Shown: piece after piece, positions 8,911 through 62,069 of the stretch | Layout of the letters: each line of letters opens with the position of its first letter | How positions within the stretch are numbered: position 1 is the first letter of the stretch | Source of the DNA: an uncultured Alphaproteobacteria bacterium | GTDB taxonomy: Bacteria; Pseudomonadota; Alphaproteobacteria; RF32; CAG-239 | Assembly (NCBI GenBank): GCA_944391705.1 | Contig: CALXUN010000005.1 | Coordinates: forward strand, 19,873 to 83,872 | Direction of reading: 5' to 3' | DNA length: 64,000 nt | Notes under the pieces: model-generated | Told to the model about the DNA's origin: nothing | Databases searched by the model: none | What the model saw: only the letters and a program-made list of their open reading frames with translations | Made by a program: the position numbers and the translations under genes

Positions 8911-9001
8911 TTTGTCTTAGTCCGGCATCCATGAACGAACAGCTAAGCCATATTCTTTTGGCCCCTAGTATTCGCCGACGTTGTCGGCTCATATGGGTGA
9001 C
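8911..9001 (+). repeat. Intergenic structured repeat: degenerate module B tail plus module A copy
   Basis: GGCATCCATGAAC (B tail) is followed by GCCATATTCTTTTGGCCCCTAGTATTCG-CCGACgttGTCGG-CTCATATGGGTGAC. See findings. Confidence 0.7.
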
Positions 9002-9025
9002 GGCGTATGTGGAACATATACGCCC

Positions 9026-9073
9026 GGAGAATCTTTAAAGTTGCAAAAAAAAAAAACGGTTTAGAATGACGCG
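9026..9073 (+). promoter_or_regulatory. Conserved 48-nt promoter block upstream of a pilin-like gene (TTGCAA-N15-TAGAAT with an A12 tract)
   Basis: This block is identical to 61320..61367. The -35-like TTGCAA is at 9041-9046, the -10-like TAGAAT is at 9062-9067, and the A12 run is at 9045-9056. Confidence 0.55.
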
Positions 9074-9116: not shown

Positions 9117-9833
9117 ATGAACAAAAAAGAAAGAAACGAACGGACGCTGAACCGGACAGATGCGAAGCCTTGTTTGAGCGACGTGTACAAAAAGCGTACA
9201 CGAGCGAAAAGAAGGCAAGAAGATGTTCGGTTATCCGGTCGTTCTATGGTTGAAATGCTTGGGGTTTTGGCTATCATCGGGGTCTTATCGGTCGGGGCTA
9301 TCTCCGGTTACTCCAGAGCCATGGAAAAATACCGGCTTAACAAAACGATTACCGGATATTCTCAACTTTTAGTCCATTTGTTTGAGTTTAGAAATAATTA
9401 TATACAGCAAGATAATGTTTATCTTGCTTCTTATTTGCAAAAAATGAACTCTGTTCCGGAAGGAATGTATGTAAAAGGTGAATTTTTATTTGATTCTTTG
9501 GGCAGGCGAAATCGTATTTTCACCAGAGAAAAGAGAATTGTTTTTGATTATTTCCTGACTGATGTTTCACAGTCAGGAGAAAATGATATTGAATTTTGCA
9601 GACTTGTTTTTCAAAACCTGATTATACCTTACAGCAATATTATATATTCCGTTTCAATGTATATGCCGCAAAATACATCACCGGCAACAAAATATGGCGA
9701 TGAAAAATGCCGGTCATATTCTTCTCAACAATGCTTACGCAATATGTCGCTTGAGAACATTTATTCTTTTTGCCAAAGCTGTCTTTTGCGTACAAATCAA
9801 GACTCTAATTGTATTCTGGTTATTACTGTTTAA
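9117..9833 (+). CDS. Type IV pilin-like protein with an unusually long basic leader
   Basis: GGAGG-N5-ATG at 9117. A class III signal, G|RSMVEMLGVLAIIGVLSVGAISGYSRAM with Glu at +5, follows a 41-aa leader. The C-terminus is Cys-containing and paralogous to 61416..62069. Confidence 0.7.
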   Translation: MNKKERNERTLNRTDAKPCLSDVYKKRTRAKRRQEDVRLSGRSMVEMLGVLAIIGVLSVGAISGYSRAMEKYRLNKTITGYSQLLVHLFEFRNNYIQQDNVYLASYLQKMNSVPEGMYVKGEFLFDSLGRRNRIFTREKRIVFDYFLTDVSQSGENDIEFCRLVFQNLIIPYSNIIYSVSMYMPQNTSPATKYGDEKCRSYSSQQCLRNMSLENIYSFCQSCLLRTNQDSNCILVITV

Positions 9834-27675: not shown

Positions 27676-27846
27676 AAAGCATCCGTTAAGAGCCTGCCGA
27701 TATCCGGATACTAAAGTCTGCTCTTAAGCGGTGACAACATGTACGCGCCCTGCACCTGTCATGTCTACGAAGACGCATTAGCGTCTGAGTATCAGGCATC
27801 CACGAATTAAAAAAAACAAGCCATATTCTTTTGGACCCCTATAGCC
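27676..27846 (+). repeat. Intergenic structured repeat cluster (degenerate B copies, intact B, truncated A)
   Basis: Module B lies at 27757-27807. A truncated module A (GCCATATTCTTTTGGACCCCTATA) lies at 27820-27843. Confidence 0.7.
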
Positions 27847-28111
27847 ATGTGCCGGAATGTTATCATTGCCATCAAAGAAAATGCAGCGATACTTTACCGG
27901 ATGGTGACTCATGATGCCGGCGGGGGGCCTTCTCCTTCAAAACATACCATATACAGCGGTTATGACACTTGTGATGAATTCAATTGTATCAGCGACCTGA
28001 CTTTTACAAAAATTGACGACATGTGCCGCGGATTTGCAGAGGATTATCCCCAAATATACATTTCCGCTTCTTTCAGATAAAACACTTTTGCTTTTACAGG
28101 CAAATAAATAC

Positions 28112-28135: not shown

Positions 28136-28145
28136 GAAAAGTTAA

Positions 28146-28300
28146 AAAGCCGTCTGGTCGTTTATTACATTTCATATCGAACCGCTTGACCAAGGTGGGC
28201 ACCATTTAATCAGACCACGATCTGAACAGTGACAGTTCCCTAATAATATACTGTTGGCTCGGATAGACCAATGCGGGATAAGACGCGCCAGACAGCCTGT
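28146..28300 (-). ncRNA. ssrS: 6S RNA candidate
   Basis: It lies immediately downstream of zapA, as ssrS does in E. coli. The 5' AGGCTGTCTGG pairs with the 3' CCAGACGGCTT (11 bp including 2 G.U) to close a roughly 155-nt rod. The segment CACCUUGGUCAAGCGGUUCGA resembles E. coli 6S CACCUUGAACCAAGGGUUCAAGG. The ends are approximate. Confidence 0.55.
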
Positions 28301-28315
28301 TTTTATGATATAATA

Positions 28316-33406: not shown

Positions 33407-34165
33407 ATGACGGCTCCTTTAATGCCTAAAGCCACGGCGGTCTGGCTTGTTGAAAATACGACGCTCACTTTCCGCCAGATTGCTACGTTTTGCGAATTGC
33501 ACGAACTGGAAATCCAGGCGATTGCCGACGGCGATGTTGCTTATAACATCATCGGTATCAGTCCGGTTGCCAACGGTCAGTTGTCCGCAGAAGAAATCAA
33601 ACGCTGCGAAGCCGATGCGTCCGCCAATCTGGTCGCGAATATTATTGAACGCAACGTTAAAGAGTCTAATGCCAAAAATAAAAAAGTTTTGTCGCCGTCA
33701 CAACGCAGTGATAAACCGGCAGCCATTTTGTGGATTATCCGCAATTGTCCGGAAATTACCGATCCGCAGATTTGTAAACTGATTGGTACCACCAAACCGA
33801 CAATTGCAGCCATTCGTACCGGAACGCGGCCGGATATGTCCGCACTCAGAGCCAAGAACCCGGTTGCCATCGGGCTTTGTTCGGAAAAAGATTTGGATGC
33901 GGCCATCACGATAGCCAAAGAAAAGGCCGAAAGACTTGCCAACCCGAAACCCAAAACCCAAAAGAAAGCAGCAAAGAAAAAAGTAACGGCCAAAAAAGAA
34001 ACGGTGAAAAAAACAGCTAAAAAAGCTGCGACTAAGAAAGCCACGGCAAAAAAAGCTACAGCTAAAAAAACAACCGCCAAGAAGGCTCCGGCCAAAAAAG
34101 CGGCTAAAAAGACAACCGTTAAAAAAGCACCGGCGAAAAAGAAAGCCGCTAGAAAAAGCAAATAA
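33407..34165 (+). CDS. DUF1013 (TrcR-like) protein with a histone-H1-like AKK-repeat tail
   Basis: The N-terminus MTAPLMPKATAVWLVENTTLTFRQIATFC..LE.QAIADG is the alphaproteobacterial DUF1013 signature. The last approximately 70 aa are Lys/Ala/Thr/Pro repeats. Confidence 0.75.
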   Translation: MTAPLMPKATAVWLVENTTLTFRQIATFCELHELEIQAIADGDVAYNIIGISPVANGQLSAEEIKRCEADASANLVANIIERNVKESNAKNKKVLSPSQRSDKPAAILWIIRNCPEITDPQICKLIGTTKPTIAAIRTGTRPDMSALRAKNPVAIGLCSEKDLDAAITIAKEKAERLANPKPKTQKKAAKKKVTAKKETVKKTAKKAATKKATAKKATAKKTTAKKAPAKKAAKKTTVKKAPAKKKAARKSK

Positions 34166-41143: not shown

Positions 41144-41632
41144 TTAACGTTTGGAGAACTGGTAAGAACGGCGGGCTTTGGCTTTACCATACTTCTTACG
41201 TTCAACAACACGGTCATCACGGGTTAAGAAACCAGCCTGTTTCAGAACAGTTCTCAACTCCGGCTCATATTCATTTAAGGCCTTGGAAATACCGTGTTTG
41301 ATAGCACCGGCCTGACCGGACAATCCACCGCCTTTAACCGTGCAAACAACGTCAAATTCATTCATACGGTTGGTAATTTCAAACGGCTGATTGATAATCA
41401 TTTTCAAAACCGGACGGGCAAAATACTGATCAATGGATTTTTCATTAATGGTAATGTTGCCTTTACCCGGCATAATCCAAACGCGGGCAACAGCGTCCTT
41501 TCTTTTACCCGTGGCATAAGAGCGACCCTGTTTGTCTTTGTTGGGTTTGCGGACAGCTTTGGTTTCAGCATTGGATGTTTCGGCTGCAACGCTTTTGATT
41601 TCCTGCAAAGATTCAATTTTTTTCGTAGCCAT
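41144..41632 (-). CDS. rpsI: Ribosomal protein S9
   Basis: C-terminal ...RRSYQFSKR, with an N-terminal extension. Confidence 0.93.
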
Positions 41633-42099
41633 TATAATGCACTCCTCTTATTTTTCGGGTTACGTCCGGCAATGTCCAAAACAACCGGATTCTGAGCCAC
41701 ATGCGGATGATTGCTGCCGGCATAAACCTTGAGTTTGGTCATCTGCTGGCGGCCCATCGGATTACGTGAAATCATGCGTTCAACAGCTTTCTCAATGACA
41801 CGTTCCGGGAAACGGCCGGCCAAAATTTTTGCCGGGGTGGTTTCTTTGATACCGCCAATCCAGCCGGTATGCTTGAAATATTTTTTATCCGTCAGTTTTT
41901 TGCCGGTTAATTTAACTTTATCGGCATTAATGACAACGACATAATCGCCGCAATCCAAATTCGGGACGAAGTAAGGTTTGTTTTTACCGCGCAAAATTTT
42001 GGCAACTTCAGCGGCCAAACGACCCAAAACAACGCCTTCCGCATCGACGACATACCATTTTCTCTCAATATCTGAGGGTTTGGTTGCATATGTATTCAT
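41632..42099 (-). CDS. rplM: Ribosomal protein L13
   Basis: [16 protein letters not shown] motif. It overlaps the rpsI start by 1 nt. Confidence 0.93.
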
Positions 42100-42306
42100 A
42101 TTTATTCTCTCTCTTTAAATAGAAGGGTTATTCAATTCGGGTTTAATATACTTAAATTAAGCGCATTGTCAATAATAAAAAATAAAGAAAATACAAATAA
42201 TTGCAAAATAGTATTATAATACCGTTTATTAATTATCTGTTTTTGTTTTATTTTAGCAGCATAAGATAAAAAACACCGGTAAAACATTTTAAACCTGAAT
42301 GTTTTC

Positions 42307-42511
42307 TGGATCCCTGGCACTCAGTGCTAAAGCACTTCGTAGGGATGACAGGTTGATATGTCACCCTTATGAGCGGGCTTTAGTCCGCGAATACTAGGGG
42401 TCCAAAAAGAATATGGCAATGATGTGTGATTCGTGGATCCCTAATACTCAACAGCTGCGCTGTTTCGTAGGGATGACAGGAAAGGTGGATGCCTGCTCTT
42501 AAGGCATGACA
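42307..42511 (-). repeat. Array of structured repeats (B-B-A-B when read on the minus strand)
   Basis: Module B copies lie at 42486-42511, 42429-42478 and 42307-42350. A module A copy lies at 42360-42417. Confidence 0.75.
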
Positions 42512-42713
42512 GGTATGGGTGTATGACGGAAAAAGAGGGTTGGAAAGAGAAGTCAAAAAAAAGAAATCTGCCGCAACAAAAGTTACGGCAGACCTTTTAG
42601 GGGAAAATATTATTTTTTTGCAGCTAGGGAACCGCTTAAAACAATATTTCCGTTTTTTATGCCCGAAAGCCGCTTATAGGGATTGCCGCTTTCAAACATA
42701 AAACTTTCTTACA

Positions 42714-43415
42714 TTAGTAGTATTTCCAGGCAACTTCACATGTCGTACCTGTACAAGAACAAGCATTAACAGCATTGGTAACGCTCATCGGCGTCGGATT
42801 TTCATCTCCGCCCGGAACAGCGATGGCTGTGCAGGTACCGGTGCCGGTGCCATTACAGGCTACACTTTGGTCGCCGCTTTCTCCCAAATAAACAGAATCG
42901 ACACCATTTTCTTGAGCCGCATCATCTTCGCCTGTAACGCCGGATGTATTACCATCTATACCGGCAGCAATAGCAATCAAACCAGAAGCCTGTCCGGAAC
43001 CCCAGTCGCCGGTGGCAATCGTTACACAAGCTTCGGATGATAAACCGCTGTACACAATACTAAACGCTTCATTATCATTACTTTTCCGGCCACCGGAAGC
43101 GCCGATTTTTACCGCACCGCCAAAAGCGTTTGTAATTGTAGATGTGTTGGCAGAAGCGGCATTATACATATCATTCGGAACCACGCCGAATTTGATGGCT
43201 TGCGCATTGCTCAAACCTGTATAATCACCTTGGGAAGAGAACAGGGTGCGGATATTGGCAACCAACATCGAAACCTGGTCTGTGGTTTTGTTGATTTTGT
43301 ATTTGTTCATGGCTTTGGAATAACCGGCGATACCACCGACGGACAGAACACCGATAATGGCTAAAACGCCTAACATTTCGACCATCGAACGGCCGTTTTC
43401 ATTCATATGTCTCAT
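42714..43415 (-). CDS. Type IV pilin-like protein
   Basis: The leader MRHMNENG is followed by RSMVEMLGVLAIIGVLSVGGIAGYSKAM. The C-terminal domain is Gly/Thr/Cys-rich. Confidence 0.75.
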   Translation of the reverse strand: MRHMNENGRSMVEMLGVLAIIGVLSVGGIAGYSKAMNKYKINKTTDQVSMLVANIRTLFSSQGDYTGLSNAQAIKFGVVPNDMYNAASANTSTITNAFGGAVKIGASGGRKSNDNEAFSIVYSGLSSEACVTIATGDWGSGQASGLIAIAAGIDGNTSGVTGEDDAAQENGVDSVYLGESGDQSVACNGTGTGTCTAIAVPGGDENPTPMSVTNAVNACSCTGTTCEVAWKYY

Positions 43416-51347: not shown

Positions 51348-51503
51348 TGCAACCAAAGAGCTACCGACTTTGAGCCGGCTGTGATTAGGTAAGTTTAGAA
51401 ATCAGGCTTGCTTGTCAGCTGAAGGGCTTCGCAAACCTACGGTTCAGCTGAGGTACACCCCCTAACCTGCTTACACTGGTTGCACCTAAAGTGCCTCAAC
51501 GTT

Positions 51504-51613
51504 GACCCCCGGTATTCGCCGACGTTGTCGGCTCATAGGGGTGACAAAGTCGGTGACGGCACAAAGTTGTCATGCCTTCAAAACGCAAAGCGTTTTGGAT
51601 TAGGCATCCACAA
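51504..51613 (+). repeat. Structured repeats (module A followed by module B)
   Basis: Module A at 51504-51545 reads GACCCCCGGTATTCG-CCGACgttGTCGG-CTCATAGGGGTGAC. Module B lies at 51568-51613. Confidence 0.75.
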
Positions 51614-52234
51614 GGATATAAATACTTAAGTTATGTCTGTCAACCTGCTACCTGCCCGGACGGCTATTCCACCGCTTATCAGTCGGCTGATGACTGTGGA
51701 ACAACCGGCGCTCAAGGCTGGACTTTCTCTTCTAACGGTTACAGCGGCGATAAGCTTTGCGGCAAGTGTACTGCAAAAGACTGTGACGAATATAGGTGGG
51801 AAGAAGGAAGCATCCTTTCGGCAGCGCTTAGTAGTTGTGGAGAAGATTGTATTAAAGAATCTTGTACAGCCGGTGATACCATTAAATATAAAGTTACAAA
51901 ATGCAGTAATGATAAATATACCAATGATGATAAAACCGCATGTTTGGACCGTCCGGTTGTTTATGTTACAGTATCAGGATCTGGAAGTGTACAATGCGCT
52001 TTATCTAATATTGACAGAGCAACGACAGATGTCAAAATATGCAGAAACACCAGCTGTCAGGATTGCAGCAGTGCCGGACGTTCCGGTGACAGAATTTGTG
52101 TTGCGTCCGACTTCAATCCAGACCTAGGTTCAAATTATTTGAGTACGGTATGTCGTTATATAAACAAAAACCCGACATCTGGATCTTATACTGATTTATC
52201 ACATCCTGATAAAGGAAGGATTATTTACAAATAA
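51572..52234 (+). CDS. Cys-rich protein lacking a signal peptide (possibly 5'-truncated)
   Basis: 220 aa and Cys-rich. The only Met is the start, and that ATG lies inside repeat module B (TGTCATGCC). An in-frame stop lies at 51554. Confidence 0.45.
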   Translation: MPSKRKAFWIRHPQGYKYLSYVCQPATCPDGYSTAYQSADDCGTTGAQGWTFSSNGYSGDKLCGKCTAKDCDEYRWEEGSILSAALSSCGEDCIKESCTAGDTIKYKVTKCSNDKYTNDDKTACLDRPVVYVTVSGSGSVQCALSNIDRATTDVKICRNTSCQDCSSAGRSGDRICVASDFNPDLGSNYLSTVCRYINKNPTSGSYTDLSHPDKGRIIYK

Positions 52235-61141: not shown

Positions 61142-61261
61142 CGTCATGCCTTAAGAACGAGCGTAAGCGAGTGAGTACCAGGCATCCATACATCAAATAA
61201 TATGCCTTGTTTTTGTGGACCCCTAATATTCGACAGGCAAAGCCTGTCTCATAGGGGTGAC
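61142..61261 (+). repeat. Structured repeats (module B followed by module A)
   Basis: Module B lies at 61142-61190. Module A at 61201-61261 has the inner stem GACAGGC-aaa-GCCTGTC. Confidence 0.75.
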
Positions 61262-61319: not shown

Positions 61320-61367
61320 GGAGAATCTTTAAAGTTGCAAAAAAAAAAAACGGTTTAGAATGACGCG
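61320..61367 (+). promoter_or_regulatory. Second copy of the 48-nt pilin promoter block
   Basis: This block is identical to 9026..9073. TTGCAA is at 61335-61340, A12 is at 61339-61350, and TAGAAT is at 61356-61361. Confidence 0.55.
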
Positions 61368-61415: not shown

Positions 61416-62069
61416 ATGTTTTACAATCAGTCCGGGCGTTCTATGGTTGAAATGCTGGGGGTGCTCGCCATTATCGGCGTTTTATCGGTCGGTGCCATCA
61501 GCGGTTATTCCAAGGCCATGATGAAGTATAAACTCAATCAATTTTCCGAATCTCTTAATCAGTTGTTGAACAATATTACTCAACTGCTATCATCCCTGGA
61601 TCATACTGGCGGAAATATCAATGTATCTCTATTAGACAAGCTATCTCTTATTCCAGATGGTTTTTCCATTGAAAACACTGCATTACTTGATATATTTCAC
61701 AATACTGTTACATTCGGCTCTTTTCCACATAACAGTTTGGGACGCGAAACTTATCTTTTCTTCTCTCTTGAGCGTACAGGCAATAAAGTCGGCAATGCAG
61801 CCATAACCTGGTGTCTTAATATTATCAACGCAGCCAAAGAACATCATGGTGATTTGTTTGCCCTGCAAGTCAGACAATATGGCGAAACAGGAAGCGCTCA
61901 GGATTATACGGCAACTTCTTTATACGGCGATCCATACTGCGGAAAATTCAGGCAATGTCTAAATACGGTTTCATTAGATAAGCTTTATACATTTTGCAGC
62001 CAATGCGAGTCTTCAACCGGTTGTCTTCTCGGAATTTTTTGGGCTCAGAAAAATCCCTATAGCTTATAA
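61416..62069 (+). CDS. Type IV pilin-like protein
   Basis: GGGAGGGG-N7-ATG. The leader MFYNQSG is followed by RSMVEMLGVLAIIGVLSVGAISGYSKAM. The C-terminal motifs (QCLNTVSLDKLYTFCSQC) are shared with 9117..9833. Confidence 0.78.
   Translation: MFYNQSGRSMVEMLGVLAIIGVLSVGAISGYSKAMMKYKLNQFSESLNQLLNNITQLLSSLDHTGGNINVSLLDKLSLIPDGFSIENTALLDIFHNTVTFGSFPHNSLGRETYLFFSLERTGNKVGNAAITWCLNIINAAKEHHGDLFALQVRQYGETGSAQDYTATSLYGDPYCGKFRQCLNTVSLDKLYTFCSQCESSTGCLLGIFWAQKNPYSL

Follow-up and report, generated by a model that had tools for sequence, protein, structure and literature searches.

What kind of element is a short intergenic repeat whose letters change from copy to copy while its two arms stay complementary? 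The question is raised by an array of such repeats that lies before rplM in a stretch of 64,000 nt from the genome of an uncultured alphaproteobacterium (hereafter the window; positions 19873-83872 of contig C5 in the 1.49-Mb, 37-contig, 42% G+C genome G000). An earlier note on this DNA had described the repeat as family B, a two-stem element, and had offered three ways to read it: as an element of the repetitive extragenic palindrome (REP) or bacterial interspersed mosaic element (BIME) type, as the core of a MITE (miniature inverted-repeat transposable element), or as a transcribed RNA motif. The covariation of its stems, the alternation of its units and its fold support the first of these, and we consider it probable that the repeat represents a lineage-specific family of REP/BIME-like intergenic repeats acting at the DNA level. 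Few features of bacterial genomes have gone unexplained for as long as REP/BIME elements, and those without a REP-associated tyrosine transposase (RAYT) are the least understood; the present family gives clear data, with a small genome, about 100 copies, a sharply defined fold, many strain alleles and a tight link to one promoter and gene family.

Conservation of a two-tier hairpin

We used a covariance model of the repeat unit, R1, both to place individual copies and to take a census of them. All six copies noted in the window are present, with R1 coordinates that differ from those first given by 1-5 nt, and a check of the sequence returned the stems as quoted: the outer stem is ATGCCT/AGGCAT in three copies, ATCCCT/AGGGAT in two and ATGTCT/AGGCAT in one, and the inner stems comprise AGACGC/GCGTCT, AGTGC/GCACT, AACAGC/GCTGTT and CAAAACGC/GCGTTTTG. 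The unit, an imperfect palindrome 42-47 nt long, can be written GTCAY-outer stem-AYGAR-inner hairpin-YGARTA-YY-outer stem-YCCA, its invariant flanks being G1, T2, (C3) and A4 on the 5' side and T-C-C-A on the 3' side. Its fold consists of a 6-bp outer stem, a 3-nt bulge, 2 bp, a tandem G·A/A·G mismatch, a variable inner stem of 5-7 bp and a small loop; the bulge, nearly always A-Y-Y, separates the outer stem from the next 2 bp on the 3' strand. Folding of the units as DNA reproduces this two-tier stem, with energies from -7.6 to -12.2 kcal/mol for the Watson-Crick types.

For the analysis of covariation we aligned 61 distinct copies with MAFFT, the regular expression by which they were picked imposing no complementarity at the variable stem positions, and counted pairs on the assumption of a 6-bp outer stem and 2 bp that two unpaired columns set off from an inner stem of 6 bp. 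Standard pairs fill 90.2% of the cells, as against 29-37% when the 3' partners are slid, and double-change cells number 196 versus 77±9 in shuffles; the structure is thus conserved with compensatory changes in both stems, as had been proposed from the few copies of the window. A cross-species alignment that includes copies from the genomes G002 and G011 is 95.8% paired, a figure biased towards structure because that alignment was fitted to the model. The outer stem is found as ATGCCT/AGGCAT, ATCCCT/AGGGAT, ACCCCT/AGGGGT, ACTCCT/AGGAGT, ACGCCT/AGGCGT and ATACCT/AGGTAT, and in G002 as ATTCCT/AGGAAT; its pairs occur as UA/CG and as GC/CG/UA/AU. The inner segment is more variable still: 34 distinct versions occur among 60 canonical copies, and 29 zip at least 4 pairs, with a mean of 4.6 versus 1.1 after shuffling.

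The two columns counted as unpaired always carry 5'-GA-3' opposite 5'-GA-3', preceded by a pyrimidine and followed by a purine, i.e., in a YGAR context. Extra G·A pairs outnumber T·C pairs by 30 to 2, and from this excess one strand, that running from GTCAY to YCCA, can be recognized as the folding strand. In the kink-turn of RNA a 3-nt bulge is followed directly on its 3' side by tandem sheared G·A/A·G pairs. We considered this motif and rejected it, as the bulge of the present unit lies 3' of the G·A block on its strand and two Watson-Crick pairs away, which is the wrong geometry.

The copy noted at 61142-61190 had been described as having a degenerate inner stem; it belongs instead to a purine-rich sub-type that pairs by a repeated YGAR/YGAR motif. 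Clean copies of this sub-type (e.g., ACGAGCGAGCGTAAGCGAGTGAGT) pair via repeated tandem G·A mismatches, as seen both by hand pairing and with a simple zipper script; for instance, ACGAATGAAC-gaa-GTGAATGAGT pairs in the order A-T, C-G, G·A, A·G, A-T, T-A, G·A, A·G, A-T, C-G. The copy in the window (61143-61188 in R1) carries a TTAAGA head variant and needs one extra A·G mismatch when fitted by hand; the fixed-register zipper did not pair it, and its ViennaRNA prediction is without an inner stem.

Two sub-types alternating in mosaic arrays

A plain regular expression (GTCATNNCT…AGGNAT) gave a first census of about 48 copies genome-wide. The genome-wide run of a covariance model, which the earlier note had asked for, returned 94 R1 matches at E<=0.01 and 107 at E<=1, distributed over 50 clusters. 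The true copy number is probably higher, because many clusters lie at contig ends. All 50 clusters lie between gene calls based on open reading frames (ORFs), which extends to the whole genome the observation that the copies of the window are intergenic; the only ORFs that overlap clusters are of 70-220 aa and were judged not to be genes.

The units fall into two sub-types, B (GTCATGCCT…) and A' (GTCACCCCT…). The latter had been taken for a separate family A, of the form TGGACCCCTAGTATTCG-hairpin-CTCATAGGGGTGAC; its reverse complement, GTCACCCCTATGAG-hairpin-CGAATAYYAGGGGTCCA, aligns over the full length with B, GTCATGCCTACGAA-hairpin-TGAGTAYYAGGCATCCA, and the two families are therefore one unit in opposite orientations. 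Multi-unit clusters show a strict alternation of B(+) and A'(-), as at C35 (B A' B A'), C9 and C14, and the arrays can be written as (B-L1-A-L2)n with two recurrent linkers, L1 (CCAYRAATCAAACA…GCCWTRTTCTTTT) and L2 (…GGCACAAAGTY). Such an alternation of sub-types joined by a limited set of linkers is the architecture of BIMEs, and a short stem-loop palindrome that is extragenic and present in high copy number falls within the descriptive class of REPs. Local GC skew was used to look for a bias in replication strand: of 49 B units 37 are on the negative-skew side, and of 45 A' units 32 are on the positive one, a bias that is inseparable from effects of gene orientation without a closed genome. 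A site for integration host factor in L1, comparable to that of BIME-1, was tried as well and dropped: on a by-eye reading ATCAA is kept and the downstream TTR of the WATCARNNNNTTR consensus is not.

Arrays in the window

Read along the minus strand, the array before rplM opens with a C-rich linker and an orphan GTCAT head (ccGTCATACACCCATACCT; 42511-42529), a pattern of head plus linker that also precedes other arrays. The first unit, at 42486-42510, is a minimal B unit reduced to the outer stem (GTCATGCCT-TAAGAGC-AGGCATCCA; R1 25.1 bits, E 0.008; DNA fold with a 6-bp stem, -4.0 kcal/mol). It is followed by a full B unit at 42434-42477 (GTCATCCCTACGAA-ACAGCgcaGCTGT-TGAGTATTAGGGATCCA; R1 61.8 bits), the DNA fold of which (-8.6 kcal/mol, z -3.45) has the two-tier stem as predicted, and by a copy of L1 (CGAATCACACATCATTGCCATATTCTTTT; 42405-42433) that leads to the next inverted unit and whose consensus recurs genome-wide after B units. 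That inverted unit, an A' unit of the former family A with its top strand on the plus strand, lies at 42360-42404 (GTCACCCTTATGAG-CGGGCtttaGTCCG-CGAATACTAGGGGTCCA; R1 59.1 bits) and aligns column by column with B units. The short linker L2 (ATATCAACCT; 42350-42359, minus strand) then connects it to the last B unit of the array, at 42307-42349 (GTCATCCCTACGAA-GTGCtttaGCAC-TGAGTGCCAGGGATCCA; R1 51.6 bits; DNA fold -7.6 kcal/mol). In a simple consensus scan the array sits between two sites on its own strand: upstream, an intrinsic-terminator-like site (42595-42564), made up of a 14-pair stem and then a T run, 3' of a pilin-like gene (42714-43415, minus strand); downstream, a sigma-70-like promoter site, TTGACA-16-TATATT with 11/12 matches (42172-42145), before rplM (41632-42099, minus strand), the product of which matches Pfam Ribosomal_L13.

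Units occur at four further loci of the window. By zapA and the 6S RNA gene, the 3' part of an inverted unit (…CTCTTAAGCGGTGAC; 27704-27735, plus strand), which matches A' units of the TTAAGAG type, lies upstream of a B unit with a G·T pair in its outer stem (ATGTCT/AGGCAT; 27758-27802, plus strand; R1 60.0 bits). This is followed on the same strand by L1 and the first 10 nt of an inverted unit (TGGACCCCTA; 27803-27841), which end at a deletion junction recognized by comparison with strain L083, and directly behind the repeat by the promoterless 3' remnant of a pilin-like gene (27842-28082; blastx, 93.8% identity to residues 193-273 of a 273-aa paralogue). At a second locus, the tail noted at 8911-8936 (AGTCCGGCATCCATGAAC, plus strand) is plausible as the degenerate 3' end of a B unit and continues into L1; an A' unit (8959-9001, minus strand; R1 35.1 bits) follows, 36 nt upstream of the conserved promoter of a pilin-like gene starting at 9066/9117. 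A third locus holds an A' unit (51502-51545, minus strand; R1 40.6 bits) and a B unit of the TTCAAAACGC/GCGTTTTGGA type (51569-51610, plus strand; R1 39.3 bits), whose stem is continuous without the G·A block (DNA fold -12.2 kcal/mol, z -5.7). At the fourth, the purine-rich B unit (TTAAGAACGAGCGTAAGCGAGTGAGTA; 61143-61188, plus strand; R1 54.5 bits) is accompanied by an A' unit (61216-61261, minus strand; R1 53.7 bits) that lies upstream of the pilin-like gene 61416-62069, 70 nt from the conserved promoter of this gene. The promoter block itself (…CTTTAAAGTTGCAAAAAAAAAAAACGGTTTAGAAT…; 61320-61367, plus strand) has a second copy at 9026-9073, and the mosaics end just upstream of it.

A 220-aa ORF (51572-52234, plus strand) starts inside the B unit at 51569-51610; it is without a promoter, gives no blastx match to the pilin-like family, and may be spurious or the remnant of another type of gene. 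In the leader-peptide coding region of the pilin-like gene at the second locus, a hairpin, CGTGTAC-aaaaagc-GTACACG, is flanked by GAGCGA…AGCGAA (9176-9208, plus strand); it recalls the YGAR-flanked inner stems, and a relation to the repeat family is possible.

Variation among strains and distribution

Contigs of the same species were collected from public assemblies via exact matches to the proteins that flank them. At the rplM locus three contigs are without 127 nt, which is one B-L1-A'-L2 period, and have a hybrid B unit with a mismatched outer stem (ATGCCT/AGGGAT) and a diverged left linker. At the rlmH locus G000 has one unit and other strains 2, 3, 5 or 7, of mixed types, between near-identical flanks, and at the locus of a Zip transporter the second unit has been swapped for a module of a different type. 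At the zapA/6S locus strain L083 has B-A'-B-A', a promoter and a whole pilin-like gene, and the sister species G001 and G002 likewise have the whole gene with its promoter; in the allele of the window (27704-28082) the foot of the first A' (…GGACCCCTA; CCCCTA) is joined directly to the last ~80 codons of the gene. Because L083 keeps the intact gene and promoter, the loss of pilin-like genes is a recent event that differs from strain to strain. Exchange between types of unit is shown by chimeric inner segments, for instance ACAGCGCA|AGCGAG. Thus, the arrays change by gain and loss of units, by conversion of inner segments and by deletions, i.e., through recombination between units, and at all four polymorphic loci the differences consist of whole or part units bounded by repeat sequence. 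These comparisons may speak against the option of a MITE core, in that neither a body bounded by terminal inverted repeats nor a target-site duplication was seen at the polymorphic sites, where no such duplication is definable and no pair of empty and filled sites was found. Two further anchors were of no use for comparing strains: the 368-aa gene beside the 51502-51610 cluster has no exact match on record, and ribosomal protein S21, being too conserved, brought up other genera. Tandem duplications that are unrelated to the units are also seen after the stop of the pilin-like gene or at its terminator, of 19 nt (TAGCTGCAAAAAAATAATA) in L066 and of 9 nt in L070.

With R1, two of 41 related genomes score, G000 and G002 (7-10 copies); at a relaxed threshold G011 yields 36 diverged copies, which form the sub-types GTCATGCCTCCGAGG…CCGAGGATAAGGCATC, GTCACGCCTTGAGAG…CTCGAGGTTAGGCGTC and GTCACCCCACGAG…CGAGTTTAGGGGTC and keep the G·A block and the 3-nt bulge on stems that differ. 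A broader model, R2, detects 1-9 copies each in 7 further genomes among 40 from the same family, which with G000 makes 8 of 40 genomes and 8 of the 23 sampled genera. The first exact B pattern found no match in the contigs of species genomes; a degenerate pattern, scanned over 185,579 species genomes, found two contigs of G002 only, and the same pattern gave 0 matches in viral contigs and 0 in JGI metagenome contigs. The overall distribution is that of a superfamily of patchy occurrence, with a single large burst, in G000.

Association with terminators and a pilin-type promoter

Terminators precede arrays at other loci as they do at rplM, and on the opposite side the arrays mostly meet one conserved promoter (AAGTTGCAAAAAAAAAAAACGGTTTAGAAT, with an A12 spacer) that is present in 31 copies in G000, 57 in G001, 46 in G002 and 6 in G008. 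In G000 most promoter copies with an ORF call precede pilin-like genes that carry the GRSMVEMLGVLAIIGVLSVGA motif. R1 units stand there 31-51 nt upstream of at least 19 of the 31 promoter copies, further copies being cut by contig ends, and the promoters of G011 are also preceded by mosaics, there of diverged modules. Among 24 sampled promoter copies of G001 and G002, mostly unique sequence rather than units is found upstream, and the promoter accordingly does not depend on the units. Three clusters adjoin promoterless 3' remnants of pilin-like genes, namely the one at 27842-28082 of the window (plus strand) and the flanks of C12:45524 and C27:8373; units also occur at loci without a detectable pilin-like gene or remnant, e.g., between convergent genes at C3:12637.

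The promoter of G001 and G002 carries a different conserved extension on its upstream side (…ccggttgcgacttatccccaaaagactCTTTAAAATTGC). In G000, where B is the last module, the junction to the promoter holds a small terminator-like hairpin with a T run (tCTCTCCaaGGGGAGGcctttttttt), as at C9:3916-3960, C5:86204-86248, C6:73085 onward, C17 and C33. At 9002-9025 of the window, and in equivalent places on other contigs, the last unit is separated from the promoter by a short hairpin of a third kind; its sequence differs by locus (GGCGTATgtggaacATACGCC, ggaacatattcc) and is followed by a constant (c)gGAGAATCTTTAAAG. Behind the array of the rlmH locus (C2:18290-18661 region of G000) lies a further truncated gene, the 3' end of a Cys-rich one, in another frame than the called ORF and with neither start nor promoter; a blastx search with this fragment gave no match.

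Comparison with known repeat systems

The closest parallels are the REPs (or palindromic units, PUs) and BIMEs of E. coli and other enterobacteria, which are likewise extragenic, high-copy imperfect palindromes of about 35-45 nt (PMC2817692; PMC3479197), and in BIMEs, too, two sub-types (y and z there, B and A' here) follow each other in alternating orientation, with a small set of linkers between them. The E. coli REP hairpin has a conserved mid-stem mismatch, C:A and A:G, that is needed for RAYT binding (PMC3479197); the present unit resembles it in its mid-stem purine mismatch, and the two families are alike in being restricted to species and variable between strains. The present family differs from E. 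coli REPs in having no RAYT gene in the assembly, in its GTCAY head and YCCA tail in place of a 5' GTAG, and in a stem of two tiers that includes a 3-nt bulge and whose inner part is hypervariable. Moreover, whereas E. coli REPs lie inside operons, the arrays here come after terminators and before one family of promoters.

With the REPINs of Pseudomonas fluorescens the family shares inverted pairs of units with a spacer as the repeating block and many variants within one genome; REPINs, however, are tied to a single-copy RAYT gene that they flank (PMC3116915; PMC3337134), an arrangement absent here, and the present arrays reach at least 7 units of mixed sub-types. GTAG- and CGTC-tagged repeats are also short palindromes, found in many prokaryotes, and many families of them have no identified transposase (Di Nocera et al. 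2013, PMC3733652). The terminal tags are missing from our unit: GTAG occurs only inside the bottom strand of B (TTCGTAGGCATGAC), and its counterpart in A' is ATAG. A candidate model for a repeat without a RAYT is offered by the targets of Ssn, a small GIY-YIG nuclease of Neisseria and other bacteria that recognizes dispersed hairpin repeats as single-stranded DNA (ssDNA; PMC11893778). No small Ssn-like gene was found here, the sole PF01541 match in G000 being a 605-aa open frame that is taken for UvrC on the grounds of its length and of its occurrence in all members of the genus.

Two further systems have some comparable traits. In the attC sites of integrons, which flank gene cassettes, structure is conserved over sequence, one strand folds, and extrahelical bases set the choice of strand. 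Unlike attC, the present unit has no R''/L''-L'/R' boxes (RYYYAAC…GTTRRRY), and the cassettes that it adjoins have their own promoter. The RIMEs of Rhizobium (Rhizobium-specific intergenic mosaic elements) are, like other intergenic mosaics of alphaproteobacteria, built from palindromes, and no transposase is known for them; RIME units are of ~100 nt with two large palindromes, and by description they are a different sequence family in a different host lineage.

Nature of the repeat and rival explanations

On the reading that we favour, of REP/BIME-like repeats acting in DNA, the hairpin would form in single-stranded DNA, and its GTCA head, G·A block, bulge and TCCA tail would present the recognition surface of a structure-specific protein in a RAYT-like role, now unrecognised or lost. 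This suggestion is drawn by analogy with the E. coli REP hairpin, whose mid-stem purine mismatch its RAYT requires (PMC3479197). Turnover at present would depend for the most part on homologous recombination between units and on their gene conversion. Complementarity may be kept by selection for the hairpin, by templated correction of the quasipalindrome or by both; templated correction within quasipalindromes could help the arms to stay complementary even where selection is absent. A partner enzyme, if there is one, would make a new pair of repeat and enzyme; if there is none, the family would show that hairpin repeats can persist and diversify via recombination alone. At a practical level, the mosaics break assemblies of this bacterial group and mark hot spots of pilin-like gene loss.

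Several observations weigh against this reading. A six-frame search of G000 with PF01797 found no RAYT, in an assembly of 37 contigs many of which break inside mosaics, and the unit has neither a GTAG nor a CGTC tag at the foot of the hairpin, so that the two features that mark REP-RAYT systems are both missing. What the search for a RAYT-type gene, suggested by the earlier note, did yield is an IS200-like relic of 27 C-terminal residues (C1:10507-10587, minus strand; …WSDGYFVSTTGVNTNII*RYIEQQ, with an in-frame TAA; 19 bits, below the cut-off). The relic (locus L001, 1501-1581) is nested between B-B and A'-B units and has IS200-like end hairpins (CCACCGGCTTACGCCGGCTGG), which resemble the ends of intact IS200 copies in sister species. 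It could be an insertion sequence (IS) that landed in the mosaic or, less likely, the last trace of the family's own enzyme. The intact Y1 genes of sister species were examined as RAYT candidates and rejected: they belong to ordinary IS200 elements with end hairpins of their own, and these have no units beside them, just as the Y1-like genes of G018 and G013 have no units nearby. In the strain comparisons no single unit was found inserted in a demonstrably empty site, and transposition is accordingly not shown. G·T pairs (19) and A·C pairs (15) are about equal in number, and wobble pairing therefore cannot tell DNA from RNA. Finally, the units are tied to the pilin-type promoter far more strongly than classical REPs are to any single gene family, which hints at a local function, or at a history of co-duplication, beyond the plain REP model.

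That tie is the starting point of a rival explanation, under which the mosaics are a working part of the pilin-like cassettes, either as sites of recombination or cleavage that would drive the deletion, replacement and exchange of pilin-like genes or as binding sites of a nucleoid protein or regulator by which promoter activity would be set, and serve as a device for variation or insulation rather than being selfish DNA. The placement of units before at least 19 of 31 promoters, with more cut by contig ends, would follow from it, as would the same placement in G011 and at some G002 loci, the three clusters next to promoterless 3' remnants, the many contigs that break inside mosaics, and the zapA/6S deletion junction, which lies exactly at the foot of an A' hairpin where another strain keeps gene and promoter. 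Yet the 57 promoters of G001 and the 46 of G002 are, in the 24 copies sampled, mostly without units upstream, units lie at loci with neither a pilin-like gene nor a remnant, no recombinase or nuclease partner has been identified, and a single junction is an anecdote and makes no rule; we regard this explanation as rather unlikely. Its most specific form would have the GTCAY hairpins serve as ssDNA sites of a non-RAYT recombination or cleavage system wired to the pilin-like family and shuffling promoter-plus-gene cassettes. Cutting or pairing at the hairpin feet would then delete, replace and shuffle cassettes, with the length of the array shifting at each event; the result would be repeat-driven variation of pilus-like surface proteins, with the G·A block and A-Y-Y bulge as the recognition marks of the enzyme. 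We keep the idea because the link to the pilin promoter recurs in G011 and because the deletion junction falls at a hairpin foot, and give it a low probability since the promoter is independent of the units in G001 and G002 and units occur where there are no pilin-like genes.

A cis-acting RNA, by comparison, could be a 3'-untranslated hairpin that shields upstream mRNAs from exonucleases, as is reported of some E. coli REPs, or a small protein-binding G·A RNA. It would account for the strong covariation and for the orientation of B, whose top strand runs with the upstream gene in 39 of 49 cases, and tandem G·A pairs beside bulges are common protein-binding motifs in RNA. The arrays nevertheless follow intrinsic-terminator-like sites; half of the units, the A' units, are oppositely oriented, and in one transcript would have C·U/U·C in place of G·A; near-identical strains have from 1 to 7 units at one locus; and most sister species are without units at the thresholds used. 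A search of the whole window with Rfam 15 at the gathering threshold returned only two tRNAs and the 6S RNA, and a permissive scan of 42150-42700 gave only matches far below gathering scores; the geometry of the unit, as seen above, is not that of a kink-turn. The position between terminator and promoter, the alternating orientation, the changing copy number and the lack of an Rfam match together disfavour the transcribed motif that the earlier note had offered as one option, and we hold it to be improbable. A further rival explanation would make the units mere passengers of pilin-like gene duplications, an upstream flank under concerted evolution with no mobility or function of its own, the solitary copies being leftovers after deletion of the gene. 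Most clusters do lie at pilin-like loci or remnants, the same classes of junction between last unit and promoter are met with at several loci, and units have evidently undergone gene conversion with one another. Passengers, however, leave unexplained why complementarity holds across 34 inner segments and at least five outer-stem variants, and why species whose stems differ still have the G·A block and the bulge in common; moreover, the promoter family expanded in G001 and G002 largely without units, and related units are present in other genera of the family. We therefore consider this last explanation very unlikely and the least probable of those weighed here.

Other features of the window

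The 6S RNA gene recovered by Rfam (RF00013, 57.5 bits; 28143-28301, minus strand) lies downstream of zapA, by the variable pilin-like locus, and is kept in 12 of 12 species of the genus. Farther along the window, a tandem repeat with a period of 15 nt (33956-34158, plus strand) inside the ORF 33407-34165 encodes a Lys/Ala-rich tail of the AKKA type.

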